From positions 40,364,001-40,428,000 of the forward strand of contig NC_087251.1 in assembly GCF_037042905.1 (NCBI RefSeq): DNA of 64,000 nucleotides. Reading direction: 5' to 3'. The first letter of the stretch is position 1. Each line of letters opens with the position of its first letter. The notes under the pieces were generated by a model. That model made no database searches. It was not told the DNA's origin and saw only the letters and a program-made list of their open reading frames with translations. Below are positions 3,774 through 59,925 of this stretch, piece after piece. This DNA comes from Lytechinus pictus. Lineage: Eukaryota. A program made the position numbers and the translations under genes.

Positions 3774-4706
3774 CACTGTTGGTCATAATGGTGGAATAAT
3801 TATTTTTACCCCAGTTTAGGGAAGGATTTAAAAAAATTATTTATTTCTAATAGATCTAGATAATGGCATACATTCTCAGATTTTATTGAATATTGATTTG
3901 CGAGTGTTTCTTTTGCGTGACTGCTAAATCATATGTGTGCTACTATGCTAATCAGCTAGGGAACCTACGTCCTTAAATCATAATTGACAGTAATGAGGAT
4001 TAATGCCTCACAAAAGGGCACTTATATAGCTAATCGACACGATTTTTATCCTGGGGCCTCACAGTAACGAGGCCATTACTTAGCCCCTGAATCATGACTG
4101 TACGCAGTGTTTGCTAGGGTACGCGGCCGCCCCCACAAATCCCCCAAAACGAAGAAAATGCAATAAATTGTCAAAAATTCATTGCAATTTCCCCCCGCCC
4201 CCAACAGGAAAAATTTCTCTGTGTGGCCATGCCTTGAACCATAATGCATGGCCCTACAGAGGAATTTTTCCTGTTGGGGGCCGGGGGAAAATGCAATAAA
4301 TTTTTGACAATTTATTGCATTTTCTTCGTTTTGGGGGATTTGTGGAAGGGGCCGCGTACCCTAGCAAACACTGCGTACAGTCATGATTCAGGGGCTAAGC
4401 AATGGCCTCGTTACTGTGAGGCCCCAGGATAAAAATCGTGTCGATCAGCTATATATCAGTGCCCTTTTGTGAGGCATTAATCCTCATTACTGTCAATCAT
4501 GACTTAAGGACGTAGGTCCCTTAGCTGATTAGCATAGTAACACACATATGATGAAGCAGTCACGCAAAACAAATACTCGCAAATTAGTATTCAATAAAAT
4601 CTGAGAATGTATGCCATTATCTAGATCTATTAGAAATAAATAATTTTTAAAAATCCTTCCCTAAACTGGGGTAAAAATAAATATTCCACCTTTATGACCA
4701 ACAGTG
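3774..4706. mobile_element. Near-perfect palindromic foldback MITE (933 bp), TA target
   Basis: TA|CACTGTTGGTCATAA ... TTATGACCAACAGTG|TA. Arms of about 460 bp pair up to CCATGC/GCATGG, leaving a 13-nt spacer at 4233-4245. Confidence 0.92.
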
Positions 4707-6849: not shown

Positions 6850-7247
6850 TCGATTAACAGAAAGAAAATCAAGCCTAAGCCATTTCATTTGGATCACTGC
6901 TTTGTGTAATCACGGTGTGTGCGGATGGGGGTGCATTGACGTTCGATGAAGTGTTTTGGGCAAGGAAATAAGTTAAAAAGGTAAAAGATACCTTCAATTC
7001 ATTCTTCTCAGCCAAAGTCCATGTGCTCTTCATGATTAACGTTTACTTTTATCCAAATAATTATTTCCGATTTCTGCGCAAATCATTTTTCACAAACTTT
7101 TTAAAAGTGAGTGGTGCTCAAAGATTTTTCAACAGTTGTATCGTCCTTCGATTAAAGAGACCTCTATCAATGTATAAATGTGGAAAAAGCTTGAAGATAT
7201 TACAAATGTATTATTTTATAGGATTATTTCTTAGTGTAAACTTTAAC
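6850..7247. repeat. Interspersed repeat, copy 1 (copy 2 at about 38320-38720)
   Basis: About 400 bp of colinear similarity, e.g. GATTAACAGAA..GCCTAAGCCATTTCATT and CAATTTCTGCGCA.ATCATTTTTCACAAA. Confidence 0.75.
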
Positions 7248-8726: not shown

Positions 8727-10219
8727 CTTCACCATCTTCCCTCTATACTGTGATCTACTTCCCTGAACTACTTTTGATTTTATGGTCTGCAGGACGTCAT
8801 TTGAAACCATCGGCTGACCTAAACCTGACCTGATTACAATTAATAGTCTTGAATATCAGTCCTGAACTTGAAGAGTATATAGCAGCAAACTTGCAAGTCA
8901 GCGCGTTACAATAGGCTGCAGCAACCAAGTACAAAAAAAAGAAAGTTCAAAGTTCTAATATTTTTCTCTTTCTTTCCTCTTAACATGCACAAAATAATAT
9001 ACAAAACTTTGAAATTAATAACATTAAAAAACAGAGAAATTAAAAAAATAGAAAATAAATGAAGGTATGTATGCATGTAAATGAATGGCAAATAAGAACA
9101 TAACAATGACTGAGAAAGACGAGAAGACCTCAAGGAATCATAGCTTGTAAAAAAAATGTCATAAAAAGAATCATGCACATCTATTACATCCATGACAGTG
9201 CTTCCACTCTTTCTGGAATCCAGGAAATTCCACGAAGTTATCATTTTCGGGAATGATATAATTTTCTGAATATTATGTCAAAATTTATTACAAAATTTGA
9301 TCTTTTTAATCATAAACTTTGGCCGTTTCGTCATGTTTCGCCCCCTCAATTTTTTTGGCTCAATTACGGCACAAAAATTTCATTTTTGTGTGTGAATAGA
9401 AGAGAATTATAACTTATGGAAGACTGGAGAACATTCGGAAAGTTCCAGGAACTTTCAGAGTAAATTCCAAGAAGTTCCGTTTTGAAAAGTGGAAGCACTG
9501 ATCCATGATTACAATTTCTTTGAGTTAGCCGATATAACATGTAATGTATTTAGGCCTCCCCTTTGTGTAGCCTCGATAAGATCTAATGTTTGGAATTAAG
9601 CCACAGTATACGGTACCAAAATAAGCCAAAATTCGGCAGATAACTATTGATAAAAAACGATGTAGGCCTACTTTTTTTTCAGTCTTTGTATACTTTGATA
9701 CTGATAGTGATAAAACTCTTCTACCCCCCCCCAAAAAAAAAAATTGTCACAATGCAGGATGGTTAACGAATAAGCGAATTTATGAAACATAAATATTCCT
9801 ACATCATAATGGCAAATAATGTTAATTATCAGTTTCTGTACATGTAGGTGGTGTGATTTTTTTTTCAATTTGACATCAACTGGTACTTTATAGAATTTCT
9901 GCATCAATTATGTTTACGATTGTTGGGTAATACCACATGGTGTATTGTTGAGGACGATGGGGTCAATCGTCATCTAAGAGTCAAAAGATTTTGAAGGAAT
10001 TCGTACTCTTTCGGTGATTTTTTTTTCAATGAAAAAATAGGTTTTCGGCACCTGCCTTTTGTGACCCAATGCTGCGTACGCAGGATTTTTGAAAGGGGTT
10101 CGTGCTGAATGAACAGTTGACAAGAAAAGAAAAAAAAATGGTCTTCAACAAAAAGTTGAGGTCGTTTCGTACTCCCCCCCCCAAAAAAAAATTGTCAAGC
10201 CAACAAAAAAATCGACTGT

Positions 10220-10397
10220 CTCATTTTGCATGCCACTGAGTTGTGCATATCACTGTTAAGTTGAAAATAAGCGAAACTTAAAAATGTCATAACTTTCTTA
10301 TTTTACTTCCGATTTGATGAAATTTTCAGCGTTATGCTTGTTTGACTTTTCTCTTTTGACTCAAATCAACATTTTCTGGGTTGGACTTGTCCTTTAA
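10220..10397. mobile_element. Family B TTAA MITE, right-end fragment
   Basis: Ends GGGTTGGACTTGTCCT|TTAA and carries the family subterminal motif CCGATTT.GATGAAATTTTCAGC. Confidence 0.75.
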
Positions 10398-10541
10398 AAG
10401 ATGAAAGTTGCTGCTGTGTGACGTTCGGCGATTAAAGGGATAGAGCCTCGTCGATCTGGCGCTGCACAGCGGCTGCCGGGCCCACGATTTATTAGGCAAA
10501 ACAAATTTTTCGGAGTATATCATTTCTTATGTCTATTTTAA

Positions 10542-16590: not shown

Positions 16591-16773
16591 ATCGTTCCCA
16601 GGCCCTTGCCCCCCCCCCCCTTCACACTTCTCTCGTAAACAAACTGTACTGTGTTTGTGCATTGCTGCATGTATTGTACTGTCTGTAGAATTTCAGGTTG
16701 CCCATAATACAGTGAGGTCACCCGTTCGCTTAACTTTTGTCAACATGACCTGATACCCATCCAAAATGAGGGC

Positions 16774-17330
16774 TTAAAGGGATCGTCCAGGCTTAATAAA
16801 TAATAAATCTTAATAAATGGAGTAAAATCCACAGAGCAAAATGCTGAAAATTTTATCAATATCGGATAACAAATAACGAAGTTATAGAATTTCAAATTTA
16901 TCAATATTTTGTGAAGATATGCACATCGTCATGAATATTCATTAGGTGGGCTGATGATGTCACATCCCCACTTTCCTTTTTCTTATGTTATTACATGAAA
17001 TCATAGTTTTTTTTCTCATTTTTTTATACATCTGTAAATGATTTGTCTCCATTATGATGAAATAAGTTGCGGCAATGCACTTAATCCAATTGTTTTAGTT
17101 CTTGGTAGAAAAAAATTGAATAAACCTAATTTCATATAATAAAATACAAAAGAACAAGTGGAGACATCATCAGCCCATCTAATGAATATTCATGAAGGTA
17201 TGCAAATCTTTAGAATTCAATAACTTTGTTATTTGTTATCTTATTTTGATAAAATTTCCAGCATTTTGCTTTGTGAATTTTACTCTATTTATTGAGATAT
17301 AAATATCTCCAGCCTGGACCATCCCTTTAA
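16774..17330. mobile_element. Family A TTAA MITE (Kolobok/T2-like), full copy
   Basis: TTAA|AGGGATCGTCCAGGCT ... AGCCTGGACCATCCCT|TTAA with long inverted arms. Confidence 0.9.
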
Positions 17331-18290
17331 AAAGAGAGCTAAATAATACCTACGGCGAAACGAAAACAGCAATTTAAACATTTTTGTACCAGATTCATAG
17401 GTGGTTTGAATAAAAATGAATAAAACGGCAAATGAATTAATAAAAGGGCAAATGTGACTGAGGTATCAGATTCCTTATTGCGTCATTCTGGTAATATCAA
17501 TCTCGCACTCAAACACCAGAAAGATAAATTGTGACTACATGAGGTTAAAATAATAAATAAACCGAACTATCCTTAAAGGAGTATAGACCTACTCCAGGCT
17601 GAAAATCATAATTATCGAAGTTATTGAATATTAAACTTTGTTGCAATATTTTGTGAAACTGTTTTAGGTCCTATGTATTTTGTCATTCAGTATATGCTCA
17701 GAGGCTTATATTATGTTCCCACTTTCCATTTTCTTCTATTACATTAAAATAAACTAATGTTTTAATGTTCTTTTGTGAATCATAATTATATCCGTTTCAG
17801 AAATGATTCTTACATAATTGAAATAGTAGTGAATCCTATATGTTTTCATTCCCCTGCATGGTAGAGGGCAACATTAAATGATTATAATTTCATGCACAAA
17901 AAATAAGCGTTTAGGTTAGCTTTTGCATAATGAAGACATACGCGAGCTGGGAATATGATAATTTGAAGAAAAAAAAACCATGGAGTTAAAAGGTACACGG
18001 AAAAGGGTTATGATTACACTAAAATAAATTAGTTTACCGCAAAATATCCACCTTTGTACTACAGAAATGCAATATATCATTATTATCATCATCACCATCA
18101 TCATCATGCCTTAAATTTAGATAGATAAGGCAAGATTGAAAGTTCTTTATGTTCTGTTTAATGTGAATTAACTTTAAAAAGAGTTAAGGGCATGCATAGG
18201 CCCTTATTGGTTTGAAATGGAGCACAAACTATATGATCACTGGCGAATGAATGGAAGTTAGGACTTATGCATGTGATTTCAACTGAAGTT

Positions 18291-18848
18291 GGACACTTCC
18301 ACCCCAACAAAAAGTTGATTTGAATAAAAAGAAAAAAAATCAATAAGCCAAACACTAAAAATTTCATCAAAATCGGATATTAAATTAGAAAGTTTTGACA
18401 TTCACAAGTTTCGCTTAATTTCACAAAGCAGTTATTCACATCCTGATTGGTATGCAAATGAGGGGACCAATGATGTCACTAACTATTTCTTTTGTATTTT
18501 ATTATATGAAATATTCTAATATTCTGATAATTGTCTTGAGAAACCGTTTATTCCTCCCTGAACATGTGGTATTATGGTTCAGTCAATCTGATCCTTAATG
18601 TCAAATCTGTGTAAGTTGACATAATGTGTAATTCAAACAATTAAAAAAAAAGAAATAGTAAGTGAGGGACTTCGTCGACTCTTTCATTTGCATGTACTGA
18701 GTTGTGCATAACTGTTTTGTTAAAAGTAGCAAAGCTGAAAAATGTCATAACTTTCTTATTTCACATCCGATTTTAATGATTTTTCAGCGTTTTTTTAATG
18801 ATTTTTCTCTATTGACACATATCAACCTTTTTCTTAGGTGGACTTTAA
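18291..18848. mobile_element. Family B TTAA MITE, near-full degenerate copy
   Basis: GGACACTTCCACCCCAACAAAAAGTTG ... AGGTGGACTTTAA. Colinear with 28611-29138. Confidence 0.75.
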
Positions 18849-19412: not shown

Positions 19413-19945
19413 ATAAAGGGGTACTCAATGCTGAAAAAATATGATTAGAATAGATCAAGAGAAATCCGGCAAAGAAAATACTGAAAATTTGATCACAATC
19501 GGACAAGGAACAACAAAATCATGCCATTTTAAAGATTAGCATTATTTCGGTGAAACGGTTCTTCTTCCTGAATATCCAATGAGCAATTTGGAGTCATATG
19601 CCCTATTATGAAATTATACATATTACTTTTTTTTCCTCCAAGCATTAAATATATTAGATCGACAACTGATGTAATACATTAAATATTCATTTCTGCATCT
19701 TCTTTTACCATAAGGGAGACATAATCATAAACAATTGTATTAAAATATGAAATAATTACGATATCATGTAATGAATTAAGAAAAGGAAAGTGGGGACACA
19801 ACATTTTTTACATAATATTGCGAAATTTTAACATTCAATGACTATGTTATTTTTTATCTGGTTTTGAAGAAATTGTTACCATCTTGAGTGAATTTTACTC
19901 TAATTATTGAGATATAATTATTTTGAGCCCGGAGTATCCCTTTAA
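19413..19945. mobile_element. Family A-related TTAA MITE, older degenerate copy
   Basis: ATAA|AGGGGTACTC ... GGAGTATCCCT|TTAA with family A internal motifs. Confidence 0.7.
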
Positions 19946-19983
19946 CTCAAGTGAAGGGTTTGCACAGCAGACTGCCGATGGAA

Positions 19984-20793: not shown

Positions 20794-21623
20794 TTGAAGG
20801 GATACTCTGGGCTTAGGATATTTCTATCTAAGTAAATAGAGTAAAATTCACAGAGCGAAATGCTGAAAATTTCATCAAAATCGGATAACAAATAACGAAG
20901 TTATTGAATTTTAAAGAATGGCAATATTCAGGTGAAACAGTTCTAGGCATGTCTTCATGAATATTCATTAGGTGGGCTGATGATGTCACATCCCCACTTT
21001 CCTTTTTCTTATTATAAATGAAACAATTACGATTTCGTGTAATAAAGTTATTATTACACGAAATCATAATTGTTTCATATTTTCTTTAATGTGTAAATGA
21101 TGTGTCTCCACTATGATGAAATAAGTTGCAACAAGAAATAACTAATGCACTTAATCAGTTGTCAATCCAATTGTTTTAGTTCTTGGTAGAAAATTTTTGA
21201 AGAAACCTAATTTCATATAATAAAATACAAAAGAACAAGTGGGGATATGACATCATCCCACCTAATGAATATTTATCTCAATATGGTTTAGTAGAGAACT
21301 CTGTTTTACCTTTTCAACAAATATTTAATGTTTACCCTTCCACAAATTTTATATCATTTTGAATATAACTTTATTTTGTTAGTGGTCGCATTTCATAAGT
21401 TGGGTATGCAAAAAGGGTGGCGGATGAACAATTTTCCACACGGTGCCATTTATGGATAAATTGTTGCTAATCACAATATATTGCTAATCTTTAAAATTCA
21501 ATACCTTCGTTATTTGTTATCGGATTTTGATGAAATTTTCAGCATTTTGCTCGATGAATTTATGAATATTAATTCATTGTATGATTAAGATATAATTATT
21601 TTCAGCCCGGAGAACCGATTGAA
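20794..21623. mobile_element. Family A TTAA MITE with about 200 bp of unrelated sequence inside (about 21274-21476)
   Basis: Left arm colinear with 39193 onward. The right arm resumes at TTGCTAATCTTTAAAATTCAATA and ends at TTCAGCCCGGAG. Confidence 0.8.
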
Positions 21624-21740: not shown

Positions 21741-21857
21741 GGATATTAAACACAAGGACACCACTGGTTGAGAGGAAAGTTCAGCCTGTAGGGAGACAGG
21801 CAGAAACCATACGGTCATTTACATACCCTCGGCCACCACACGGGTCAACATACCAGC
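21741..21857 (+). other. Splice acceptor (21739-21740) and 5'UTR part of the coding exon of the bZIP gene
   Basis: TTTTGTTGTTCCTCTCCTTCTCAAATACAG|G. The in-frame TAA at 21747-49 shows that translation starts at or after ATG 21858. Confidence 0.7.
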
Positions 21858-23174
21858 ATGCCGTCAAGGAGGAAATGTGCTCATACGACCAAAATTGAAC
21901 GGGTTCCTAGCTATGCCGTCTACCATGGCGAGGAAGACCTGGATGATCGCCTTAGTAATGACGGTACACTCGACCTCAGCATCAAGAAAATCAAAAGGGA
22001 GCCTTCCGATGACAATATTGAGTTGTCTGGAGAAGGGATGTACCTCGGAGATGAGAACGATGTGGGGAATATTGATGCGGGAATTTCTGAAAAAGTAAGT
22101 GGAGGAAGTGGGGAAGAATTGTCAGAGGATATTGCGCCCCCTAGTGACCAGTGCGAGGCAAATGGGAAAACGGGAGCAGACGACGCAGATGCGAACAAGC
22201 CAGGAAGTCATTCAAGCAAACAAACCCCGGCCAGCGAAGGCAATGGTGAGGAGCAGATTGTCATAAACTGCAACGGACAGCCACTGAGCCCAGTCACAGG
22301 TCTACCACTCTTTCCTCAGTCTAAAGGAAAATCAACCCGACCATTTAAACTTTACACTTCAAATCGTGATCTTCTTTCTGGTATAACAACTCAAGGAGCC
22401 TCTTCTCTTGCAACGTACTCCGTACCCGTGGCTCTGACACCAGCTGTACCGGGAGCAGTCCCCATTACTTTCGCTTCCCTTCCCCTAGTATCAGGCGTAC
22501 CAATGATCCCAACTACTACGTCTCCTTCAACCACTACCTCCGCTTCATCGTCCAATGCTTCGACGGGCGCTGGTTCGATATCATCCTCCACCTCGTCTAC
22601 CTCCTCTACTACCACTACTGTGGGTGCAAAGACTACCTCGTCGACTACTGATGCTCACCTGATGACGCTAGCAACAGAAGCAGACAAGATCCTACGGGAG
22701 AGGCATGCCTCGGAGGAATCATCCATCGGTGCTACCTCGGACATGGAGGCGACTACCGGCGATACTTACAGCAGCAGCGGAGGGGAAGAAACCGCTTTAC
22801 TTGCAGGGGAAGTTCTCAAAATTCCCTCATTGGCTGGTAAGTCAGGTAACATGAACTCACTAACTTTCATCCAGAAGCGAGCCGTTGAAGCCGCCCAGTC
22901 TGTCACGAACCCACCGAAAAACAAGAAAAAGCGATTAGCTCTCCCAGAGACGTTGAAAGACATTGCATACTGGGAGAGAAGGAGGAAGAACAACGAAGCT
23001 GCAAAACGATCCCGGGATGCTCGCCGGGCCAAGGAGGATCAAATCGCCATCAGGGCTGCCCTACTGGAACAAGAAAATATGCGCCTCAAAATCGAAGTGT
23101 CAGCACTCAAAGAAGAAACGGTTAAACTACGATCTATGCTCTACGCAAACAACAACAGTCATGATGACAGTTGA
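21858..23174 (+). CDS. giant: PAR-bZIP transcription factor of the giant/CES-2 group, 438 aa, single coding exon
   Basis: C-terminal b[48 protein letters not shown]-terminal TLDLS (CtBP PxDLS-like) and TRPFKLY, resembling motifs of insect Giant. Exact orthology within giant/ces-2 needs a phylogeny. Confidence 0.85.
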
Positions 23175-27338: not shown

Positions 27339-28610
27339 AATATGTCGTGTTCGGCGGGGGGGGGGGGGGGGGGGGGGGGTAAGCAAAGCAATCGATCGAG
27401 CCAAAGAAACAAAAACAAAATGTGGAAGGGTTTGAAGGTAGGAAGATTTTTCACAATTTTTGCATGAATAAGGACAGAGGTCATCCGTGATTGCATCCTT
27501 AAAATATGCAAAGAAGCGTAGCGACCGAGAGCGAAAAATTGTCTTAAACCAGTGGAACTTCTTATTGTTTTTTTCGAAAATAGATTTTTTTTCCCCCAGT
27601 AAAACATAGCATTTTGAAGTACCCACAAAATATACAGCACTGAAAAGCCATTTGTGATTTTTTTTTTCGTGTAAATAAAATAAGCATTTTGAATTATATA
27701 TATCAAAAGACATTCCAATGAAAGGGCGTTTGTAAAAAAAAAAACAATACTAAAATAATAGTTGCCATTTTGAACCTACAACACGCATGGTATTGGGAGC
27801 TGAAGTGAAGGGGGGTGTTTGGGGGTACCCTGTTAAAGTAAAATCACCGAAATTGTATAAATTGAGGATCACCAGCCCTATACTATTCCAATCCATTTTT
27901 TGTACTTGTTTTAAATGATTTTTTTAATAGATCAGTTCATTTATTTGATACTTTCAACATAAACAACATTATGTTGTTTTATATGATAGTATAATTAAGA
28001 CACGATACGGACATATGCCTATCAAAATATGCTGCAAATAACTGTGATAAAAGCAAAAGCAAGCAAACGAGTAAAAAACATGAGTGAAGAATATCATGTA
28101 GGTTACCACCGGCATGCGAGCAGGGGATGGGTGGACGGGAGGGGAAGGGGGAGAGGGACAGAGAAACGTGAGGTAAAAATATGTTATCCCCTTTCCTTTC
28201 TCTTTCTCCTTTTGTTCGTATTTTACTCTTCTTTCCTCTCCCCCCCCCCCACCCCTCTCTATCTCTTTCTCCCTATATTATGTATTATATAGCCCTTTTT
28301 TTGAAAGGAGAATTTCACCAAGACAAAGTATAATTATTATAAAAATACCAGAAAAGATAATGAAAGGTATTGGCGAAGGTTTGAGGAAGTTTATTAGAAT
28401 TTATTAATTTGTGACGTCCTATGCGAGCAACTTCTCCATTTATCGTGTAGTAAAAATAAATGATAAAATGTTCTTTTCTCAAAAACTTGAAAATTATTTT
28501 ATAGTACATTCAGAATATCAACGGGCCAATTATTTCACATCTGCTCCTAAAAGAAATACATTTTTAGTCATCATGGCCCGTTGAAAAAAATTAAATTCAT
28601 GCATATTATA

Positions 28611-29138
28611 TTAAAGGTCAAGTCCACCCCAGAAAGAACGTTGATTTGAATAAATAGAGAAAAATCAAACTAGCGTCACGCTGATAATTTCATCAAAATC
28701 GGATGTAAAATAAGAAAGTCAATTTTTCATAAAACGGTGATATGCACAACTCAGTGATAATATACAATATTTAATTTTTACCGATTTTACAATAAGGCCA
28801 ACTTGACTGAACCATATAGTATTAAACAATGTTAATTCCACATGCTCAGGGAGGAATTAATCGTTGTTTCACTTGACAATTAGGAGACAATTAGAATATT
28901 TCATATTTAATATAATAAAATACAAAAGAAAAGTGAGTGACGTCATCAGTTCCCTCACTTGCATACCAACCGGGATGTGCATGTAACTACTAGTATTATT
29001 TGAAATTAAGCGAAACTTAAAAATGCCATAACTTTCTTATTTTACATCCGATTTTGATGAAATTTGCAGTGTTATGCTCGTTAGATTTTTCTCTTTTTAT
29101 TCAAATCAACTTTTTGTTGGGGTGGACTTGTCCTTTAG
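28611..29138. mobile_element. Family B TTAA MITE, full copy
   Basis: TTAA|AGGTCAAGTCCACCCC ... GGGGTGGACTTGTCCT|TTAG. Confidence 0.88.
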
Positions 29139-31695
29139 ATAACATAATATGCATTTTTTCACGATTACTGCAAGTTCTTAAAATGTCCCCATGTTAGGTC
29201 TGAATATAAAAAAAAACTTCAGCTCGCACTTTGCTCCTTTGTTTAATGATGAGTTAGGTATGCTCTCATGAATTAATTAAAAACAGTCCTTAAAATGTAA
29301 ATTTTTAGGTCTGAATGTCGAATTATTTAACTAGCGAGATACCATGCTCGTCACGAATTTTTACAGACAGTGCTTTAAATGTGCACCCTTTTCAGTTCTG
29401 AACAGAGATGAAATATCATTATTAGCAGTCAAAAAGTTCTTCATAAATAATGTTATTTTAATCTGTTTTCATATCATAAATCTAGCTCGTGTATAATTTG
29501 CACGGTAGAGAATGATATAATCTCCGCCATTGCATAGTTTTAAATTGCACAAAATTCATATATATTTTATATAACTCATGAAATCATACTTTTTGCTCTA
29601 AATTCACTAAATAGAACTCCTATAAATTTAATTTTGGGTGTAAATGTTCCTTGTGGCATTCCTAACAACTACATATGAAAAGAAATCCGCTACCAAAATC
29701 AATGTCCTATGTATTTTATTGGTTTTTCTTTTGTTTTTCGTATGTATTTCTTTCATTTCTTATTGTCATTGTTTTTCGACAAAATTCATCGGGGACATTA
29801 TTTCAGTAATAAAATAGCATCAAATCAAATGACTATTGTCAATAAAAGTAAGAATAAGCACTCATTTATGAATTTTATATGAAACAAACTTTGAATTGAC
29901 TTTCTACATGAGATATACTAGTATACGTTTTTGAGCAATTTCGGGATGACATGCACTTACATAAGGTTGCGTAATTTCGTAACCGTGTGCCAGGGCATCG
30001 CAAATTTGGTCTCAAAATTTGTGCGAGACTTGAAGGTAAAAAGTCAGTAAACGATGCGGTCAAAAAATTCGCGCAGCGGATGATTCGCGAAAAATGTCGA
30101 GAGGGGGGGGGGGGCTGATAAGCCCCCTCTATTTGGGAGTCAATATACAAAAACAAAATCAGCTCGCGCTTTGCGCTCGTATTGCTTATTTAATGAAACA
30201 CGTGGCATGATTGCAAAAAAAATATAGTACTTAGTTAGAATGTATATTATTTTCAGATCTCATAAATATTTTTTTTATTAGCTTGCGCTTCGTGCTCTCA
30301 TTATTTGATTAGTGAGATATGTATGATCTTCCTGAAGTCCTGGAAATTGTCCTTAAAATGAATCTGTTTAGGTCAATGGCTATTGAGCGTGCTTCTCGCA
30401 CTCACCAATGAAGTCCCCTCATGCCATGACACATGGTACGCCACTAATAGGGCATGAATCGCACCAAAAGTCACAAAGAAAAAATACTGACACATGACGG
30501 ACCTTCTCATCGTCTGTAAAGGGTGTTGTTTTCTTACACAAAGAACAAGCATTTGAATATACAGATATTTATAGGTAGATCAGAAGGGAACTGAATGGTA
30601 TTTGATATTCATCAAGTTAAAACTTTAGCAAGTAACACATTATAACACTGTTCTTACGTAATCAGACAATTATGTACAAGAGTATATATTACGTAATAAT
30701 CGATAGAGTATTTTTCGTAAATTTAATTCCGTCATTGTTCTTCATCCAGTAAATAAATCTTTCTTGGGTGATGAAACTTGATAGTATTTGGCTAAATTGC
30801 CTCCCTATCATTTAGGCCTAAACTTGTGCATCTCATAAAAGTTTGCTAGGAGTAGTAATTTTATCGAAGACATGATTCTGGTGGCGATGGTCTGGCTGTT
30901 TCAGCCATAACACTCTCACTTATACTGATTTAATCTTGTATGATAACATATTAAAATAACATTATTTATGAAGAACTTTTTTGACTGCTAATAATGATAT
31001 TTCATCTCTGTTCACATAAAAACCGAAATCATACCGAATTCATACCGGTTTGAATTCTGTATCAGGAGCACTTCTTCCTTCAAGGTGTGGGCTATGGCAT
31101 CAGGGCCATCCCATTTATGATTATGATAATCAAAAAAATTATTCTAAAAATCGCAATTTGTGTTTATATGCAAAGGGAGAGGTGACTTGTAATCGAATCT
31201 GTCGGAATCTTCACATGAAAAGTTCCAGTTCGGCATATAGATCCATATGTGGAAAACTAAGGCATACATCTCCCTTTGGATGAATGAATGAATTAAATTA
31301 TTGGGAGAGGGATAGGAAAAGATGAAGAGTTGCCTAATATTACGCAACAGTATTGATCAATGAACTATACATATGGGACGTGTTTCGAATCCTTGCTCAT
31401 CGGCCGGACTTTTTTTCTTTTTTTTTACAGACGTTGTCTTTTTTATGCTCATCTCACCGGTTAAGACTGTCTGCAAGATTACGTAATCCTCTTGATCCAC
31501 GTGATATCTTTGTTTGTATATCTTCGATGTTTCAGAAATAAGAGAGAGGACAGGGATGGTGATAGATAAACAATTAGATACGGAAAGATAGTACGACTGA
31601 TATAAAGATATAGAAACTAAAAGACAGTGAAGGCAGATTGATCGATGAAGCTTGAAGCTAGGATAGACTGATGTACAACAGGAACTTGTTATGTA

Positions 31696-34832: not shown

Positions 34833-35189
34833 TTAAAGGGGTAATCCGGGCTGAAGATATTTATAGATATTTATATGTAAATAAAAATAGTAAAAATCAC
34901 AGAGCAAAATTTCATCAAAATCGGATAACAAATAACAAAGTTATTGAATTTTAAACATTTGCATTATTTCTTTGAAACAGTTCTAGGCATGCATGACTTC
35001 ATGAATATTCATTAGGTGGGCTGATGATGTCACATCCCCACTTTCCTTTTTCTTATGTTATAACATGAAATCATAATTGTTTCATGTTTTCATAAATGTG
35101 TAAATGATGTGTTTCCATTATGATTAAATATGTTGCAGCAAGAAATAACTAATGCACTTAGTCAGTTGTCAATATGCCTAGAACTGTTT
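34833..35189. mobile_element. Family A TTAA MITE, right-truncated
   Basis: TTAA|AGGGGTAATCCGGGCTGAAG, colinear with other family A left arms. Confidence 0.8.
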
Positions 35190-36705: not shown

Positions 36706-37065
36706 CCCCCTGGATCCGCCTATGGGCCGATGACACGGATAAGAATTGAGCAAGGGAAAAATGAGAAAGAAAAAAAATGAGTCAGACGAATAAATGAATA
36801 AACGATGAGACAGAGAATAGGACAAACAGAGACATAGGCAAGAGTGATAGGTTTCGGGGAGGGGTGAGGGTGTCTTTACGAACGCCCCACGCCCCCTGGA
36901 TCCGCCTATGGGCCGAGGAAACGGATAAAAATTGAGCAAGGGAAAAATGAGACAGAAAAAATGGGTCAGACGAATAAATGATTAAACGATGAGACAGAGA
37001 AAAGACAAACAGAGACATAGGCAAGAGTGATAGGTTTCGGGGAGGGGTGAGGGTGTCTTTACGAA
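36706..37065. repeat. Tandem duplication, two copies of about 185 bp
   Basis: CTGGATCCGCCTATGGGCCGA...GTCTTTACGAA repeated (TGGATCC at 36711 and 36897). Confidence 0.9.
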
Positions 37066-37935
37066 GTTTTCTTTTTTTTCCATTGTTGGTTTTCATTATT
37101 TTTGTTTATGTCAAGTATCTTAATTGGATTTGTAATCATTTTTTGTCATGTGTAACAGCATCTTTTTATTATGTATGCCCTGAACCCCGATGAAGAACAG
37201 CGTTGTTGTATTAACAAAGCTGAATGGGCTTATCCAGCCATTATGTACATACATTAATACCTTGTATTGTTTTTAATGTTGTGACATAGAAAAGTAAATA
37301 CCAATGCCAATACCAAAGACAAAGACAAATATATAGTAGGCTAGACAAGGATGTGAGAGAGACAAAGAAACAATCAATATTTTTTAGCATCATTGTTAAA
37401 AAAATGGGGGAATATCTGACAAAATTAAATGAAAGGGAATCGGAAATCGAAAGGAGTGGATTACGTAACATCGGTAGGTCGATGGCCGAGCGACGAAGGA
37501 CATGTTGAAAGTTGGTAACATGAAAAACAACTTCTGCTCATGTACTCACTATCAAAACTTACACACTTCCTTTATGCCATGAAATATAATTGATGTATGA
37601 AACAGATTTTGAAATTGTAGGTCTAGAACAATGTCATTCGCTTCACATGGTATTTATATACAACTTATCAACTTATCCAACTTAGATTTGTCAAGATTTC
37701 AAGATTTTTTTTTTATTTCATTCTCATTTCCATTTTTCATTACTATATAATGAATATAATATTTCTATGCATTTCCTACGCTTTGTATTATCGTCTCAAA
37801 ATTTATTTATACAAATACATTGTAAAGGCACCGGGAGCAATGAATTTCGATGACGATTCAGTTAATACCATCTGGTACGACCCTTTTCAGCAGCTATCAA
37901 CTGCAACTAGATTGCGGGCACAATTAACGCCCATA

Positions 37936-38090
37936 ACTGGGCGTTTTGGTGTGCGCCTGTAATCCAAGCTGCGAGGGGTAGTTACAAATTGATATAGAGG
38001 TTCGAGCCCTGGTCAAGTCTTTCGGATGGTGACGTTAAATGTCGGTCCAGACGTAAATCATATCTGATTGATACACGTCTGTAAAAACTC
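37936..38090 (+). mobile_element. SINE-like element: 7SL/Alu-like head, B-box, Deu/Nin-like core, 3' stem-loop
   Basis: Head CTGGGCGTTTTGGTGTGCGCCTGTAATCCAAGCT; B-box GGTTCGAGCCC; core GTCTTTCGGATGGTGACGTTAAATGTCGGTCC; hairpin CAGACGT..AATCA-TATC-TGATT..ACGTCTG. Confidence 0.6.
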
Positions 38091-38319
38091 ATCCCTCCAT
38101 CCCCCAATCAATGGTAATAAGGATGATTTGTAGTCGAGCGCCATCTCCTGTCATCTGCGTTAGATGTATGTATTTCATTTCCTATAAAATAATTGAATTG
38201 TTAACAAAAGTTTTTTCAGACATCTCCAACATTTTTTTTACTAAGTTTTTATCATTTAAAGTGGGATTACATTTCATATTTCATTTAATATTTTGTTTAT
38301 CAGCACTTTTTCCAAGCTT

Positions 38320-38720
38320 GACAATGATTAACAGAAGGAAACTCAGGCCTAAGCCATTTCATTATGAATCACAGCTCCGTGTAAAGCAAGTATCACTACG
38401 ATGGCCTCGGTATATGGGAAGGGAGGGGGGCGCAATGGCGCTCTATGAAGTGTTTTGGGTAAGGAAACAAGTTAAAAAGGTAAACGATATCTTCAAATCC
38501 ATCTTCATAGTAAAAGTCCATGTGTTCTTTATGATTCACGTTTACTTTTATTCACATAACTATTTCCAATTTCTGCGCACATCATTTTTCACAAAATTAT
38601 CAAAAGTAAGGGTGCTCACTCACGCTGAAAGATATTTCGAAAGTTATATCGTCAAAAAAGCATCAGAATATTATAAATATATAAATTTTAAAGAATTATT
38701 TCTAAGTGAAAACTTTTTTG
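38320..38720. repeat. Interspersed repeat, copy 2 (see 6850-7247)
   Basis: Colinear similarity to 6850-7247. Confidence 0.75.
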
Positions 38721-39188
38721 ATAAACAATAAAGAGGCAATTTTGTGATTGTTTGTTTACCATTTAAAATTTTCATTTTCCCAAGGTTCTCCATAATATTC
38801 CAGATATACGTGTCACATAACGTGTATAGATCGTGTATGAAGTCCTTATTATGTATGAGCGGAAGTGAGCAGATCGAATAATATCACATAAATCGTCTGC
38901 TTCTCAAGTTTGCTGCTCCAAATATGAAGCATGTTTATTGAAAGGCATTATGTTGAAACAGGGCATCAGCTAACAAAAATCAAGACATGTTTTCTTCTGG
39001 GGCAAGACACGAGAACAATATTGAAAATAAAAAAAACTCAAAAGCAACAGAGCGAAGCGACCGAGTTAAGTGATTAGATACACCTTGGTAGTCATGGTAA
39101 TTGCTATTGTCATGACACCTGAATGTTCTCATTAAGATGCACAAAGCAAGGTGACGATGACTATCATTGGATCAAAGAAATGCTCGCG

Positions 39189-39790
39189 TTAAAGGGATGG
39201 TCCGGGCTGAAAACATTTATATCTCAATAAATAGAGTAAAATTCACAGAGCAAATTGCTAAAAATTTCATCAAAATCGGATAACAAATGACGAAGTTATT
39301 GAATTTTAAAAGTTTATGAATATTTTGTGAAAACAGTTATATGCACATGTGAATGAATATTAATTATGTGGGCTGATGATGTCACATCCCCACTTTCCTT
39401 TTTCTTAGGTTATTACATGAAATCATAAATGTTTCATTTGTTCATACATGTGTAAATGATGTGTCTCCATTATGATAAAATAAGTTGCAGCAATGAATAA
39501 CCAATGCACTTAATCAGTTGTCAATCCAAATGTTTTAGTTCTAGGAAGAAAAATTTTGTTTCATTTATATTATAAGAAAAAGGAAAGTGGGGATATGACA
39601 TCATCAACCCACCTAACGAATATTCATAAAGACATGCCTAGAACTGTTTCACCGGAATAATGCAAATCTTTAAAATTCAATAACTTCGTTCTTTGTTACC
39701 CGATTTTGATGAAATTTTCAGTATTTTGCTCTGTGAATTTTACTATATTTATTAAGATATAAATATCTTCACCCTGGACCATCCCTTTAA
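39189..39790. mobile_element. Family A TTAA MITE, full copy
   Basis: TTAA|AGGGATGGTCCGGGCTGAA ... TTCACCCTGGACCATCCCT|TTAA. Confidence 0.92.
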
Positions 39791-40179: not shown

Positions 40180-41461
40180 GTGTGTGTGTGTGTGTGGGGG
40201 GGGGGTGAAGCCTTGCTAGGTCAGCTAATCCCAGCATCAGGTTTGTGTGGGGGTGGTGGTGAAGCCTTGCTAGGTCACTCACCAGCCGCGAGCTAACCCC
40301 TGCATCACGGGGGTGTGTGTGTGGGGGGGGGGCGGGGGTGAAGCCTTGCAAGGTAACTCACCAGCCCCTAGCTAACCCCATCATCACGGTGTGTGTGGGG
40401 GGGGGGGAGGGGTCAAGTCTTGCAAGGTCACTCACCAGCCCCTAGCTAACCCCCAGCATCACAGTGTGTGTGTGTGGGGGGTGAAGCCTTGCTAGGTCAC
40501 TCACCAGCCTAGCTAACCCCAGCATCAGGGTGTGTGTGTGTGGGGGGGGGGTGAACCCTTGCAAGGTCACTCACCAGCCTAGCTAACCCCCAGCATCACA
40601 GTGTGTGTGTGTGGGGGGGGGGGGGTGAAGCCTTGCTAGGTCACTCACCAGCCTAGCTAACCCCAGCATCAGGGTGTGTGTGTGTGTTTCGTGTGGGGGG
40701 GGGGTGAAGCCTTGTAAGGTCACTCACCAGCCCCTAGCTAACCCCCAGCATCACAGTGTGTGTGTGTGTGTGGGGGGGGTTAACCCTTGCTAGGTCACTC
40801 ACCAGCCTAGCTAACCCCAGCATCACGGTGTGTGTGTATGTGGGGGGGGGGGGGTGGTGAAGCCTTGCAAGGTCACTCACCAGCCCTTAGCTAACCCCAG
40901 CATCAGGGTGTGTGTGTGTGGGGGGGGGGGGGGTGAAGCCTTGCAAGGTCAATCACCAGCCTAGCTAACCCCAGCATCACAGTATGTGAGTGTGTGTGTG
41001 TTTGGGGGAAGGGGGTGGTGAAGCCTTGCAAGGTCACTCACCAGCCCCTAGCTAACCCCCAGCATCACAGTGTGTTTGTGTGTGTGGGGGGGGGGGGTGA
41101 AGTCTTTCTAGGTCACTCACCAGCCCCTAGCTAACCCCCAGCATCACAGTGTGTGTGTGTGTGGGGGGGGGGTGAACCCTTGCTAGGTCACTCACCAGCC
41201 TAGCTAACCCCAGCATCACGGTGTGTGTGTATGTGGGGGGGGGGGGGGTGGTGAAGTCTTGCAAGGTCACTCACCAGCCCTTAGCTAACTCCAGCATCAC
41301 GGTATGTGTGTGTGTGGGGGGGGGGGGAGGGTGAAGCCTTGCAAGGTCACTCACCAGCCCCTAGCTAACTCCAGCATCATAGTATGTGTGTGTGTGTGGG
41401 GGGGGGGGGTGGTGAAGCCTTGCTAGGTCACTCACCAGCCCCTAGCTAACCCCGGCATCAC
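40180..41461. repeat. Composite minisatellite, about 17 units of about 75 bp
   Basis: Constant GGTGAAGCCTTGCWAGGTCACTCACCAGCC(CC)TAGCTAACCCCAGCATCAC plus a variable (GT)n and poly-G linker. Confidence 0.95.
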
Positions 41462-42423: not shown

Positions 42424-42652
42424 TTACAGTTCAAGTCCACCTCAGAAAAATGTTGATTTTAATAAATAGAAAAAAATCAAACTAGCATAATGCTGAAAAT
42501 TTCATCAAAATCGGATGTAAAATAAAGAAGTTATGACATTTTAAAGTTTCGCTTATTTTTCACAAAACAGTTATAAGCACAACTCAATGACATGCAAATG
42601 AGAGAGTCGATGATGTCCCTCATTCACTATTTTTTTTAAAATTGTTTGAAAT
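42424..42652. mobile_element. Family B TTAA MITE, left-end fragment
   Basis: TCAAGTCCACCTCAGAAAAATGTTGATTT and GCTGAAAATTTCATCAAAATCGGATG. Confidence 0.75.
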
Positions 42653-42944
42653 ATAGACTTTCAAGTCTGTATTTTCCGGTTTGATATTGATATACATTTT
42701 GCTCTGATGGATAAAAATTAATATAAAGTAATGTAAAAATTTGTATTTACCCGATATTGTATCATATTAAAAGAAGTCGTTCTTCTAACGATTTACTGTG
42801 AACTTCTAAGGATTTATTGTGAATAATAGCCATATTATCTGCAAGTCTCATGCTAGGACTCATTCTCATCAGCTAAGGGATCATATTCAGTATGATCAAG
42901 GCGACCTATGAAGAATTATTATTTATAAAATTGTTAATTATATA

Positions 42945-44553: not shown

Positions 44554-44694
44554 GAAGTGCTAATTTAGCACTTACAGTGCTTGTATAGTGACTGCACTAC
44601 GCGTGCTGACTGTCTAGTTCAAATTTGAACTAAAAAAATCAGCACTCGTAGTGCAGTCACTATACAAGCACTGTAAGTGCTAAATTAGCACTTC
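44554..44694. repeat. Spacerless palindrome of about 140 bp (mini-MITE)
   Basis: Arms of about 70 bp, centred on TAGTTCAAA|TTTGAACTA. The right flank TTTTTACAGTG|TA is MITE-like. Confidence 0.9.
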
Positions 44695-46706: not shown

Positions 46707-47094
46707 ACTCAGAAATTCCTCTTCAAAATCGTTACGTTGTAAAACGATGATATAATTAAAGACACAATGAGAGAAGCTTGATGTTATAAGAACAAAGAGA
46801 GAGAACTCAGAAATTCCTCTTCAAAATCGTTACGTTGTAAAACGATGATATAATTATAGACACAATTTGAGAAGCTTGATGTTATACGAACAAAGAGAAA
46901 GAACTCAGAAATTCCTCTTCAAAATCGTTACGTTGTAAAACGATGATATAATTATAGACACAATTTGTGAAGCTTGATGTTATAAGAACTAAGAGAAAGT
47001 ACTCAGAAATTCCTATTCAAAATCGTTACGTTGTAAAACGATGATATAATTATAGACACAATGAGAGAAGCTTGATGTTATAATAACAAAGAGA
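46707..47094. repeat. Tandem repeat, 4 copies of 98 bp
   Basis: ACTCAGAAATTCCTCTTCAAAATCGTTACG... starts at 46707, 46805, 46903 and 47001. Confidence 0.95.
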
Positions 47095-49121: not shown

Positions 49122-49929
49122 ACCCGGTGGGTGTTTCATAAAGCTGTTCGTAAGTCAAGAGCGACTTTACATGTTTAAGAACGACCGGTGATACTTTCTT
49201 GTGGAAAATGGTATATTCATATTGGCGAATGATGGTTAAGCGCGGAAGAAAGGGTCATCAGTCGTCCTTAAAGTCACTCTTAAAGATATAGTTCGGGCTG
49301 AAAATATTTATATCTAAATAAATATAGTAAAATTCACAGAGCAAAATGCTGAAAATTTGATCAAAATCGGATAACAAATACCGAAGTTATTGAATTTTAA
49401 AGTTTATCAATATTTTATGAAAACATGCAATTATATATGCACGTCGTCATGAATATTCATTAGGTGGGCTGATGATGTCAGATCCCCACTTTCCTATTTC
49501 TTAGGTTATTACATGAAATCATAAATGTTTCATTATTTCATATATGTGTAAATGATGTGTCTCCATTATGATGAAATAAGTTGCGGCAATAGATAACTAA
49601 TGCAATTAATCAGTTGTCAATCCAATTGTTTTAGTTCTTGGTAGAAAATTTTTGAATAAACCTAATTTCATATAATAAAATATAAAAGAACAAGTGGGGA
49701 TATGACATCATCATCTCACCTAATGAATATTCATAAAGACATGCCTCAAACTGTTTCACCGGAATAATGCAAATCTTTAAAATTCAATAACTTTGTTATT
49801 TTTTATCCGATTTTGATCAAATTTTCAGCATTTTGCTTTGTGAATTTTACTTCATTTATTGAGATATGAATAGTTCCAGCCTGGACCATCCCTTTAACTT
49901 ACGAACAGCTTTATGAAACGGCCCCGGGT
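49122..49929. mobile_element. Small host MITE (about 190 bp once the nested element is removed)
   Basis: Left GTTTCATAAAGCTGTTCGTAAGTCAAGAGCGACTTTA is the inverse of the rejoined right end TAAAGTCACTC[TTAA]CTTACGAACAGCTTTATGAAAC. Confidence 0.85.
49280..49897. mobile_element. Family A TTAA MITE nested in the right TIR of the host MITE
   Basis: TTAA at 49280-83 and 49894-97. Right end AGCCTGGACCATCCCT. Confidence 0.92.
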
Positions 49930-50915: not shown

Positions 50916-51417
50916 GTATTTTTTTCTTAATTTCACAAAACAGTTATATGCACATCCTGGTTGGTATGCAATGAGGAGACTGATGACATCTTCCACTCAC
51001 TATTTCTTTTGTATTTTATTATATGAAATATGGAATATTCTATTTTTCTCCTCATTGTCAAGTGAAACAACGATTAATTCCTCCCTGAACATATGGAATG
51101 GGCATTGTTTAATGCTATATGGTTCAGTCAAGTTGGATTTTATGATTAAGTTGGTCCTTATTGTCAAATATATAAAAAATGAAATATTGTATAATTCAAA
51201 CAATAAAAAACATAATAAATAGTGAGTGAGGGACATCATCGACTGTCTCATTTGAGTTGTGCATATCACTGTTTTGTGAAAAATAAGCAAAAGTTTAAAA
51301 TGTCATATAACTTTCTTATTTTACATCCGATTTTTATGAAATTTTCAGCGTTTTGCTAGTTTGATTTTTCTCTTTTTATTCAAATAAACATTTTTATGGG
51401 GTGGACTTGACCTTTAA
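50916..51417. mobile_element. Family B TTAA MITE, left-truncated
   Basis: Ends GGGGTGGACTTGACCT|TTAA and is colinear with other family B copies. Confidence 0.82.
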
Positions 51418-51726
51418 ACCTAAATTTTAAGAGTCTAGGCTTTAGAGTTTACCAACGCCTTCTTCTGTAAAAACAATATTATATCTAGGTAAGATGTGTA
51501 TATACATTTGCTCCGGTCTTAATATCTCAGAGGGCATAGAGTTAGAGTTAGGATTGTTGAGAATAATGTGAAGATAAGGATAAGGGTTTATTTAATTTTG
51601 GAAGTTAGATTTTATGTTTTGCTTAACGTGCAGATTTTTCATCGGAACAACTTGAAAGTAAAAAATTATATCATGTTTGTGAAGAAATTCAATATTCTTG
51701 TATAGATTACCATTTTTTTTTCTTGT

Positions 51727-54595: not shown

Positions 54596-56158
54596 ATGAC
54601 TCAGGGGGAGGACCAGCGGCATGGGGCGACCGTAGGAGAATTTCAACGTAATTTAGACTTATCACATCTCACTGATACGAACAATTCACTAACTCGCAAT
54701 GGAACTTCCAATATACACTCGGTAGAGGAGATGTTACTGCCATCGTGCCTTCATCGTTCGACAACGAATCCACCATCCCACGGTGGCGAGGATGCCAAGA
54801 ATCTACTCCAGTTTGTCCATCATGCTTCGTGTGACATAAAAGCCGCACTCGATCAGGGTAACTACAAACAATTCCCACAACAATCAACCAGCTCTTATCC
54901 TCATAACAGGGGTGAAAGTTTAAAGAAAGACCATTCACCAGTTCGTCGGTTTTCTTCGGACGACATGATGTCACGTCATAATCATCATAATCATCCCTCT
55001 TCTCTGCCACTTCACCATCATCGTCAACAACAACAACCGCTTGTTCGAGAAAGAGATGGTATAGCTGGAGACGAATTGACCCCCGGAAGAGACGATGCAC
55101 ATCCCGGTAACTCGAGGGATATATTCCAAAAGCGACATGACTTAGCATTTCCTTTCGATGATCAGGATAACGAGCATTCAAAAAGTATTGACAATGAACA
55201 TATCGTTTTGTCCAGAAAAGACATCGACGATTGCAAATTAAGTGGTAATACTCGGGACAAAGGGGAGACGTTTCAAAATCGGCCAAAGAGTGATAATGAC
55301 ACGATGGATCTCTTCAGCTATGTTGATCTCTTACGAGAAAACAGTCATAAACAATCTAATGATGATGATCATTCTGAGAGCGATAACGGCAATGACTGTG
55401 AGACAATGTCAATACGAGCAAATATATCGGAAAAGAAAGCGTTATCGGTGGATGACATCGACAAGAGCAATAAGATCAACGCCGTGCCGTTAAGAAAACG
55501 ACGATTACCAGCGTCATTCTGGCAAGAACCAAAAGGCAAAAGTGACAATCATAAGATCATCACTCGACCAGCTGACCATTGTCTCGATGGACAGCCTCGG
55601 TCATTCGTCCACCATCCTGGTCTGAGTTTATTCGGACAGCTCAAACTACCCGTCCCAAGTCCTTTATCGCCCGGTCATCTCGATTTCGAATTCGGTCTTG
55701 GGCGCCATTTTTGTGGCGACAAGAATCCATTCGTGTACCCGTCTACCTCAGCCCCATCACCGTTCTTGAATCTTAACATGTCTTATCGTCCACACCTCCC
55801 AATGGGCGTGCATCACGGCGTCGATGAACGTCATCGTCATGGACTTCATGTACCGTGTGGTAATAACCTGTGTATGTGCCATCTTCAGAACCTAGCAGCA
55901 TTCTCTTCCAACGTTTGTGAACCGCCTTCTCAAAACACATCATCAGGGATGTTTGGGAGGAACCCGACTATTCCACCGGTATCTCCGATGGATAATACCC
56001 CGTCATCATCCCTGGCGTTAAGCCGGTGGAGTGCCATGCAATCTATTGATACACCACCTGATCTCTTGGGTGGGTATACTATGCCTCGAGTTCTCAAACC
56101 CATCCCAACTAAATCACTGACATCATACCCATCGCGCTTTCATCCTATTTTTACTTGA
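54596..56158 (+). CDS. FAM181: FAM181-family protein, 520 aa, intronless, with TEAD-binding omega-loop
   Basis: LLQFVHHASCDIKAALD (compare FAM181A LLNFVNLASSDIKAALD) and VPLRKRRLPASFWQEP (compare FAM181A PMRKRQLPASFWEEP). The first ATG is at 54596; the ORF track starts on a TTG. Confidence 0.88.
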   Translation: MTQGEDQRHGATVGEFQRNLDLSHLTDTNNSLTRNGTSNIHSVEEMLLPSCLHRSTTNPPSHGGEDAKNLLQFVHHASCDIKAALDQGNYKQFPQQSTSSYPHNRGESLKKDHSPVRRFSSDDMMSRHNHHNHPSSLPLHHHRQQQQPLVRERDGIAGDELTPGRDDAHPGNSRDIFQKRHDLAFPFDDQDNEHSKSIDNEHIVLSRKDIDDCKLSGNTRDKGETFQNRPKSDNDTMDLFSYVDLLRENSHKQSNDDDHSESDNGNDCETMSIRANISEKKALSVDDIDKSNKINAVPLRKRRLPASFWQEPKGKSDNHKIITRPADHCLDGQPRSFVHHPGLSLFGQLKLPVPSPLSPGHLDFEFGLGRHFCGDKNPFVYPSTSAPSPFLNLNMSYRPHLPMGVHHGVDERHRHGLHVPCGNNLCMCHLQNLAAFSSNVCEPPSQNTSSGMFGRNPTIPPVSPMDNTPSSSLALSRWSAMQSIDTPPDLLGGYTMPRVLKPIPTKSLTSYPSRFHPIFT

Positions 56159-59100: not shown

Positions 59101-59460
59101 ATGATTCTGATCAATTAACGCAAATTATGAATGAAGAGGAAATGAATGGAAATAAACTGAAAGAATTGATTACATTTATTTTCTCTGTTTTCAATCTGAA
59201 GGGTGTAATATCCGAATGTGCACCTTTAATGGTTGTAATTCATTGGATATTTTCGTGTATTGCAACCGTTGGATGGTGAATCGAGATACCGTGAATGGGA
59301 AATAAAAAAATTTAAAAAAATTGCCATTTCGATCCAATGCTGTTCCAGTAACTCTAATGGAAAGAACACAGTCTGTTCACTGTGTGGAACACAATTTGAA
59401 ATCACCTCCATACAGTTAAATATGAACATTTCAACAGAATGCATATTTTCACACAGTCCA

Positions 59461-59925
59461 CTATGTGAACGCTCTGTGTGAGCACACTGTGTGAACACAC
59501 TGTGTGAGCACACTATGTGAATACACTGTGTGAGCACATTGTGTGAATACACTGTGTGAGCACACTGTGTGAACACACTGTGTGAGCACAATGTGTGAAC
59601 ATACTGTGTGAGCACACTGTGTGAACACACTGTGTGAGCACACTATGTGAATACACTGTGTGAGCACATTGTGTGAGCACACTATGTGAACACACTGTGT
59701 GAGTACACTATGTGAACACACTGTGTGAGCACACTATGTGAACACACTGTGTGAGCACAGTATGTGAACACACTGTGTGAGCACACTTTGTGAACACACT
59801 GTGTGAGCACACTATGTGAACACACTGTGTGAGCACACTATATGAACACAATCTGTGAACACACTGTGTGAGCACACTATGTAAACACACTGTGTAAGCA
59901 CCCTGTGTAAGCACCCTGTGTGACA
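59461..59925. repeat. 13-bp minisatellite with a 26-bp dimer structure
   Basis: Alternating ACACTGTGTGAGC / ACACTRTGTGAAY, about 35 units. Confidence 0.95.

Follow-up and report, generated by a model that had tools for sequence, protein, structure and literature searches.

The segment 37936-38091 of the window (the whole 64-kb stretch of Lytechinus pictus DNA that was analysed) can be assigned with good confidence to a real, multi-copy sea urchin SINE, a chimera whose head is very probably of 7SL origin. It has the anatomy, the SRP likeness and the repeat nature of such an element, and its head and tail are also linked to each other in a related organism. The element is 156 bp long, under the 1-kb size limit of SINEs, and is followed by a (CA)n tail. 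Self-comparison of the window recovered no second copy within its 64 kb, as the earlier note on this DNA had stated. The features of the element, with their strand and the evidence for each in brackets, are the following:

37936..37982, + strand: head resembling the Alu 5' domain of 7SL (SRP RNA), with closing helix 1-3/45-47, helix 3, UGUNR U-turn and helix 4 (RF00017 alignment, pair count, likeness to hagfish SINE1-1_EBu)
37940..37949, + strand: Pol III A box position within the 7SL-like head, degenerate in this copy (comparison by eye)
37958..37962, + strand: UGUNR motif (U23 G24 U25 A26 A27), SRP9/14 U-turn (sequence; G4.U23 wobble partner at 37939)
37983..37998, + strand: linker between head and B box, belonging to the repeat (high summed depth, loose-end consensus)
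37999..38009, + strand: predicted Pol III B box GGTTCGAGCCC, of the tRNA T-loop type (sequence)
38017..38052, + strand: Deu/Nin conserved SINE domain, 5' part only (28 of 35 aligned letters as in AmnSINE1_HS)
38048..38081, + strand: 3' stem-loop with an internal loop, candidate LINE-recognition element by putative function (-12.9 kcal/mol, z -4.86)
38082..38091, + strand: A-rich stretch that closes the unique sequence of the element on its 3' side (loose ends start behind 38091)
38092..38108, + strand: decayed (CA)n tail, its right boundary approximate ((CA)n run in other copies)

Genomic context

The copy lies between a bZIP exon (21792-23174) on one side and a single-exon FAM181-like gene (54596-56158) on the other, and no coding context was seen for it. 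The window also holds a ribosomal protein S12-family exon (745-1212). The FAM181-like protein is identical at 513 of 521 positions (98%) to a Lytechinus pictus protein, and its other named matches, at far lower scores, come from echinoderms, hemichordates and a lancelet; the host is accordingly placed among Lytechinus sea urchins, a placement to which homologues of the bZIP exon product added nothing. A 219-codon open frame that overlaps the end of the element (38072-38731) was rejected as a gene: it has no Pfam match and spans two repeats.

An unrelated repeat of high copy number is found 120 bp downstream, at 38214-38390 and on to 38716 (summed depth to 7e5); its part 38326-38653 resembles 6852-7145 at 76%, and 38655-38716 matches 7184-7244. 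A palindromic, MITE-like family of about 600 bp is represented by at least six copies or fragments (39189-39790, 49280-49897, 16773-17330, 20794-21276, 34833-35173 and 19449-19946), and a second palindromic family, which has a segment of about 100 bp in common with the first, is found at 14-324, 10211-10398, 18267-18845, 28599-29154, 42424-42655 and 50921-51418. Tandem arrays are present at 40249-41461 (79 bp x 15.8, containing long runs of G), 46707-47094 (98 bp x 4) and 59459-59923 (26 bp x 17.9). The near-perfect long inverted repeats at 44564-44687 and 4115-4363, which score below gathering against plant miRNA models, are probably MITEs.

Copies in other sequencing runs

Contigs of four of the eight matching sequencing runs were aligned to 37600-38400 at 80% likeness. 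Runs X1 and X3 (from one sample) and X6 come from an organism, here called organism A, whose unique flank is 10-11% different from the window and which is, therefore, a relative of the window species. X8 comes from another, organism B; it is possibly RNA (a guess), and because it was used as assembled contigs it is silent on expression.

The summed depth of these contigs is 44-106 on the flank and climbs to 10^4-10^6 in the bin 37924-37950. In the three DNA runs the head (at 37971) reaches 1005-1542 times the depth of the unique flank, a quantity that differs from copy number and that was measured in a relative rather than in the window's own assembly. With depth so understood, the roughly 1000-fold excess and the differing flanks seen in organism A correspond to the at least 100 interspersed copies by which a SINE is recognised. 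The head is joined to the B box, the core and the hairpin in 12 of the 12 DNA-run pieces listed (the longest of more than 8601). These pieces are 143-1176 nt long, extend from 37947-37955 to 38086-38091, mostly have unrelated flanks and represent about five distinct copies, judged by their difference counts; the linkage of head and core in other copies, on which the earlier note had made its proposal depend, was thus found in all of them. Positions up to 37946 lie outside these pieces, and the 11 bases 37936-37946 probably belong to the element, as the alignments of the head and its closing helix suggest. In X8, two listed pieces run over the element (37980-38080 and 38000-38091), neither of them at the 5' part of the head.

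A single copy in the window, with no other recovered as a readable locus, might suggest a one-off 7SL pseudogene fragment lying before an unrelated SINE at this locus only. The depth of the head region and the distinct copies with other flanks, which continue from the head through the hairpin, largely refute this reading, which we consider hardly credible. The core (at 38016) reaches 9,736-18,049 times the depth of the flank, about 10 times that of the head, an excess for which a parent family bearing a different head, 5' truncation and a contig artefact are all candidate causes. The 7SL-headed form could then be a minority subfamily, most copies with the B box and the core being tRNA-headed or 5'-truncated, and one X8 record (record 26) that matches 38000-38091 only, with 488 other letters upstream, is consistent with it. 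However, among the loose ends listed (of more than 751), those in front of 37997 give again the 3' end of this head in 60 and 56 contigs (agreement about 0.6), only 0.01 of the DNA-run material aligned continues unlike the window, and the window copy's own changes lower the depth of the head, summed depth being no copy number in any case. We regard a minority subfamily as a real, if less expected, possibility; it is compatible with the explanation preferred here and would name the parent SINE.

Loop 4 of the head is variable among copies, with other letters at 37971-37974 and a 2-base deletion in most of the X8 depth. Single contigs of X1, X3 and X6 join 37970 to 38018, 38058 and 38062, and also 37978 to 38060, possibly as internally deleted head-plus-tail forms or as alignment gaps. 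Pattern scans of viral contigs and genome contigs found no relatives of the element, and seven pattern matches in metagenome contigs were rejected as chance, none of the seven having any likeness beyond the words of the pattern (best blastn E 0.69).

Age of the copy in the window

Contigs of single-copy depth that include the hairpin, the CA-rich tail and the flank found downstream of it in the window occur in X3 (about 38053-38166, depth 25) and X6 (about 38048-38193, depth 64), and none joining the hairpin to that flank was found in X1. Because these single-copy contigs join the tail to the window's flank, we infer that the same insertion is present in organism A and predates its split from the window species. 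The window copy differs from the majority of organism A by at least 8 substitutions and at least 2 small deletions and, given also its age, is probably inactive. The best candidate for a target-site duplication has 12 of 18 matches, a value equalled at 424 of 2000 random positions, so that the candidate is not significant, and no contig of the four runs joins across the insertion site as an empty site would.

The 5' junction is straddled by an inverted repeat (37926-37945) with perfect 8-bp arms and a loop of 4 nt, in which flank sequence is paired with the start of the head. There are 63 inverted repeats of this kind in the window, and this one is possibly there by chance; template switching could also account for the odd A box of this copy.

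Likeness of the head to 7SL RNA

The region of the element was scanned (cmscan) against 4227 Rfam families, and the best family for the head was Metazoa_SRP (RF00017), with 21.2 bits (E 0.0063) in a scan of 2 kb (37000-39000) that aligns model position 1 with 37936. Against 231 bp around the element the score is 18.8 bits (E 0.0037), over model positions 1-44, and the same match has an E-value of 0.2 when the whole window of 64 kb is scanned. Because these scores, 18.8-21.2 bits, fall far below the RF00017 gathering score of 70, the head is a short, partial SRP match; compared with a 7SL RNA gene (about 300 nt, an S domain and a score at gathering), the element falls short, with 21.2 against 70 bits. 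Counted by eye, 31 of 44 model columns (70%) are identical between the head and the Rfam consensus. The gap-free alignment to the 7SL 5' Alu domain that the earlier note had described holds as far as position 30, and beyond it one to three letters are inserted relative to the Rfam consensus.

The first 30 letters of the head are identical at 26 positions to the heads of hagfish SINE1-1_EBu (by eye; Fig. S1 of PMC7245038), and C-to-T changes at CpG sites account for two of the four mismatches. A match of this kind has a binomial expectation of 3e-7 to 2e-5 over 128,000 positions on both strands. The A box position agrees, by eye, in 8 of 10 letters with the hagfish SINE1 copies and in 7 of 10 with the human box A given in PMC7245038. 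Taken alone, a 13-mer motif of the head is weak, being found with two mismatches in 34 of 100 shuffles.

Most SINE heads are derived from tRNA (PMC11481361), and this, together with the tRNA-type B box and an Rfam score under gathering, could point to a diverged tRNA head with a fortuitous likeness to 7SL. Such an origin is very improbable, however, since at E<=10 the 2-kb and 231-bp scans gave no match to any other class of Pol III RNA, tRNA and 5S included, and ARAGORN predicted 0 genes in the 64 kb, whereas the head shares 26 of 30 letters with a published 7SL-derived head and has an Alu-domain pairing that is unique in the window. Whether a tRNA would match the head better than 7SL, the point that the earlier note had raised against itself, was thus answered in the Rfam scans by a match to the SRP model and to no tRNA model.

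The 7SL origin of the head being preferred, it could be asked how far downstream it extends. As in Alu and the hagfish SINE1, the first ~80 nt, B box included, could all be derived from 7SL and have merely diverged, an idea favoured by the 2-kb RF00017 alignment, which goes past the head to 38014, so that the last letters of the B box fall opposite the box-B region of the model. Beyond the head, linker included, this alignment is weak, though, with posteriors of 4-7 and a 7-column gap, and the tighter scan ends at model position 44, which makes so long a 7SL segment improbable. No 3' segment of 7SL was aligned in the 231-bp scan, and in the 2-kb scan only a weak, forced alignment of it was obtained. 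The 7SL-derived part is best limited to the 47-nt head. SNORD25, mir-1268 and other Rfam matches near the element (E 0.67-9.8) were rejected as chance.

Fold of the head

Numbering the head from 37936 (position 1) and with the pairing register of the 2-kb RF00017 alignment, 15 pairs were scored: the closing helix (1-47, 2-46 and 3-45), helix 3 (4-23 to 9-18), helix 4 (28-44, 29-43 and 30-42) and the loop-loop pairs 13-37, 14-34 and 15-33, the positions of which we take from the human structure. The window copy has 14 of these 15 pairs together with UGUNR at 23-27, in agreement with the earlier note, which had described the motif and the helix-3 pairing as kept. Among the 127,906 47-mers of the window, only the head combines at least 13 pairs with UGUNR (three others reach 14 pairs without the motif), in a test that favours the head sequence because the register was taken from its own alignment. 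The only broken pair is 28-44 (U28), and it is restored in four of the four runs by the majority letter at 37979, an A (155,536 of 157,861 summed depth in X3 and 3,627 of 3,636 in X8). At 37971 the majority of organism A is also A, the same as the Rfam consensus; the majority letter at 37972, T, is at odds with this consensus and makes pair 13-37 a wobble. In the register of the 2-kb scan, the closing pairs A1-U47 and U3-A45 have neither letter in common with the g-c and c-g of the Rfam consensus. In terms of free energy, the head does not stand out from its shuffles (z -0.57), and the 7SL-type fold of the window copy has -5.0 kcal/mol against -14.0 for its minimum-energy fold.

The G4.U23 wobble and G24 are kept in the window copy. 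This wobble is conserved in Alu domains (PMC4238359), and a change of G24 to C blocks the binding of SRP9/14, whose site is in the first ~50 nt of 7SL (PMC11581171); in the same paper, G25C cut Alu retrotransposition by 88%. SRP9 contacts both domains of the Alu fold, helix 5 included (PMC4238359), and helix 5 is not evident in the element.

B box, Deu-like core and 3' hairpin

The candidate Pol III promoter parts, predicted from the letters only, are the A box position in the head (37940-37949) and the B box at 37999-38009, where one had been noted earlier behind the head. The latter is presumably a B box, judged against the B-box consensus, and its surroundings allow only three of the five T-stem pairs. 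Downstream of it, 38017-38052 agrees with AmnSINE1_HS, at the point where its Deu segment begins (Fig. S4 of PMC7245038), in 28 of 35 aligned letters, with one gap (by eye), a match with a binomial expectation of 6e-5 to 6e-3. The likeness to the Deu/Nin core claimed in the earlier note is limited to this stretch: of a Deu segment of ~130 bp the element has the initial ~36 bp and lacks the ~90 bp that follow, so that it is not a full DeuSINE. The independent 7SL/DeuSINE chimera that the same note had suggested stands in so far as an SRP-like head is linked to the core, with an incomplete Deu part.

The 3' stem-loop, the last of the parts announced earlier, is stable (38048-38081, -12.9 kcal/mol, z -4.86), only 1 of 200 shuffles being as good. 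The 3' boundary of the element is marked by loose ends, which in the four runs (90, 85, 105 and 6 contigs) start behind 38091 and continue with (CA)n, and no match for this 3' end was found elsewhere in the window. A single-copy-depth contig of X3 has A at 38094 and 38096.

Proposed origin and working

Probably through template switching or recombination, the 5' 47 nt of 7SL RNA would have been fused to the 3' region of an older SINE, the source of the B box, the truncated Deu/Nin core, the hairpin and (CA)n; a similar origin, a 7SL 5' end joined to an older SINE, was proposed for the hagfish SINE1 (PMC7245038). Pol III would transcribe the master copies by means of an A box of 7SL type and a B box of tRNA type. 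By analogy with Alu, for which delivery to ribosomes mediated by SRP9/14 was proposed (PMC11581171), the head may fold as an Alu 5' domain, bind SRP9/14 and bring the RNA to ribosomes that are making the LINE reverse transcriptase. This step is slightly favoured over its absence: the part of 7SL that contains the site, its first ~50 nt, is retained, although SRP9 holds helix 5 as well and no helix 5 is evident in the element. The LINE enzyme would finally recognise the 3' hairpin and the tail and copy the RNA to new sites, following the model for SINEs whose 3' stem-loop is also present in LINEs (PMC4824008).

It could also be that the 7SL-derived head is only an A-box donor and that SRP9/14 binding takes no part in copying. 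This would fit with the alignment stopping at 44, without a 3' 7SL segment to form helix 5, with the retention of both 7SL ends in the SINE1s described in PMC7245038 and PMC13023118, SRP9 contacting both domains (PMC4238359), and with the variable loop 4 (37971-37974, and the 2-base deletion in most X8 depth). Nevertheless, the likeness to 7SL goes well beyond the A box to the end of the 5' domain, the G4.U23 wobble, G24 and all the helices are kept, and the SRP9/14 site lies within the first ~50 nt (PMC11581171), so we consider a mere A-box donor rather unlikely.

A broader proposal, a little less likely than not, can be put forward: the element would be an undescribed, independent invertebrate SINE1, in which a 47-nt SRP9/14-binding module without helix 5 was placed on a non-L1, hairpin-recognised SINE and has been structurally selected since before at least two sea urchin lineages split. 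In that case, the 5' domain alone would give a SINE the ribosome-targeting advantage of Alu, which would be tied neither to vertebrates nor to L1. Thousands of copies in a laboratory genus would allow testing whether SRP9/14 binding selects for 7SL heads, possibly by comparing the conservation of the U-turn and of the paired sites with copy age, with binding and with sister SINEs that have the core and another head.

Comparison with known SINEs

7SL-derived SINEs have been counted only in supraprimates, hagfish and shrew mole, and their birth was called exceptional, in the parts of a 2026 paper available (PMC13023118), so that the lineages listed in the earlier note, Euarchontoglires and hagfish, are correct and lack the shrew-mole Urop. 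No sea urchin or invertebrate 7SL-derived SINE was found among the papers listed by the literature searches, which covered neither Repbase, Repbase Reports nor Dfam, where the family may be held; the main text of PMC8615465 has 0 mentions of 7SL or Alu, and the supplements of PMC7351957 gave 0 matches.

The head of the element aligns with metazoan SRP RNA (RF00017) over model positions 1-44, and the S domain and a clear helix 5 are missing from it. Compared with tRNA-derived SINE2 elements, which have a tRNA-homologous head, it is tRNA-like in the B box only. DeuSINE, Nin and Inv SINEs (such as AmnSINE1 and the sea urchin SINE2-3_SP) have in common with it the 5' ~36 bp of the Deu domain, but their heads are derived from tRNA, 5S or LINEs (PMC4824008, PMC5804259, PMC4758252) and the element lacks the ~90 bp with which the Deu segment continues; the comparison with SINE2-3_SP and the Inv SINEs is by description, not by sequence. 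Partial Nin domains and swapped heads have been described in molluscan SINEs (PMC4758252).

SINE1-1_EBu of the hagfish Eptatretus burgeri (PMC7245038) shares with the sea urchin element a 7SL head on the 3' part of an older SINE, a tail of simple repeats and 26 of 30 letters. It contains, however, 96 nt of the 5' end plus a 3' piece of 7SL and a 7SL-type box B, where the sea urchin element has 47 nt, no 3' piece detected and a tRNA-type B box; its 3' part is an RTE-derived tail with an (AAC)n end and target-site duplications of ~17 bp, in place of the partial Deu core, the hairpin and (CA)n found here. With Alu, B1 and Tu of Euarchontoglires and Urop of the shrew mole (PMC13023118), the element has in common the Alu 5' domain, UGUNR and helices 3 and 4, whereas a central deletion of ~183 nt keeps both 7SL ends in those SINEs, which have poly(A) and use L1, and neither the 3' end nor poly(A) is seen in the element. 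The sea urchin element would work like a SINE1 but differs from those published in two respects. A 3' 7SL end is not detected, and its 7SL likeness, 70% over only ~47 nt, is shorter than the minimum of 60 nt over which the SINEBase rule for 7SL derivation (PMC3531059) asks for an identity of 60% or more. All 7SL SINEs have been argued to come from one type of central deletion that keeps both 7SL ends (PMC13023118, in the parts available), and a sea urchin family with the 5' domain only would represent a further independent origin, outside vertebrates and by a different route.
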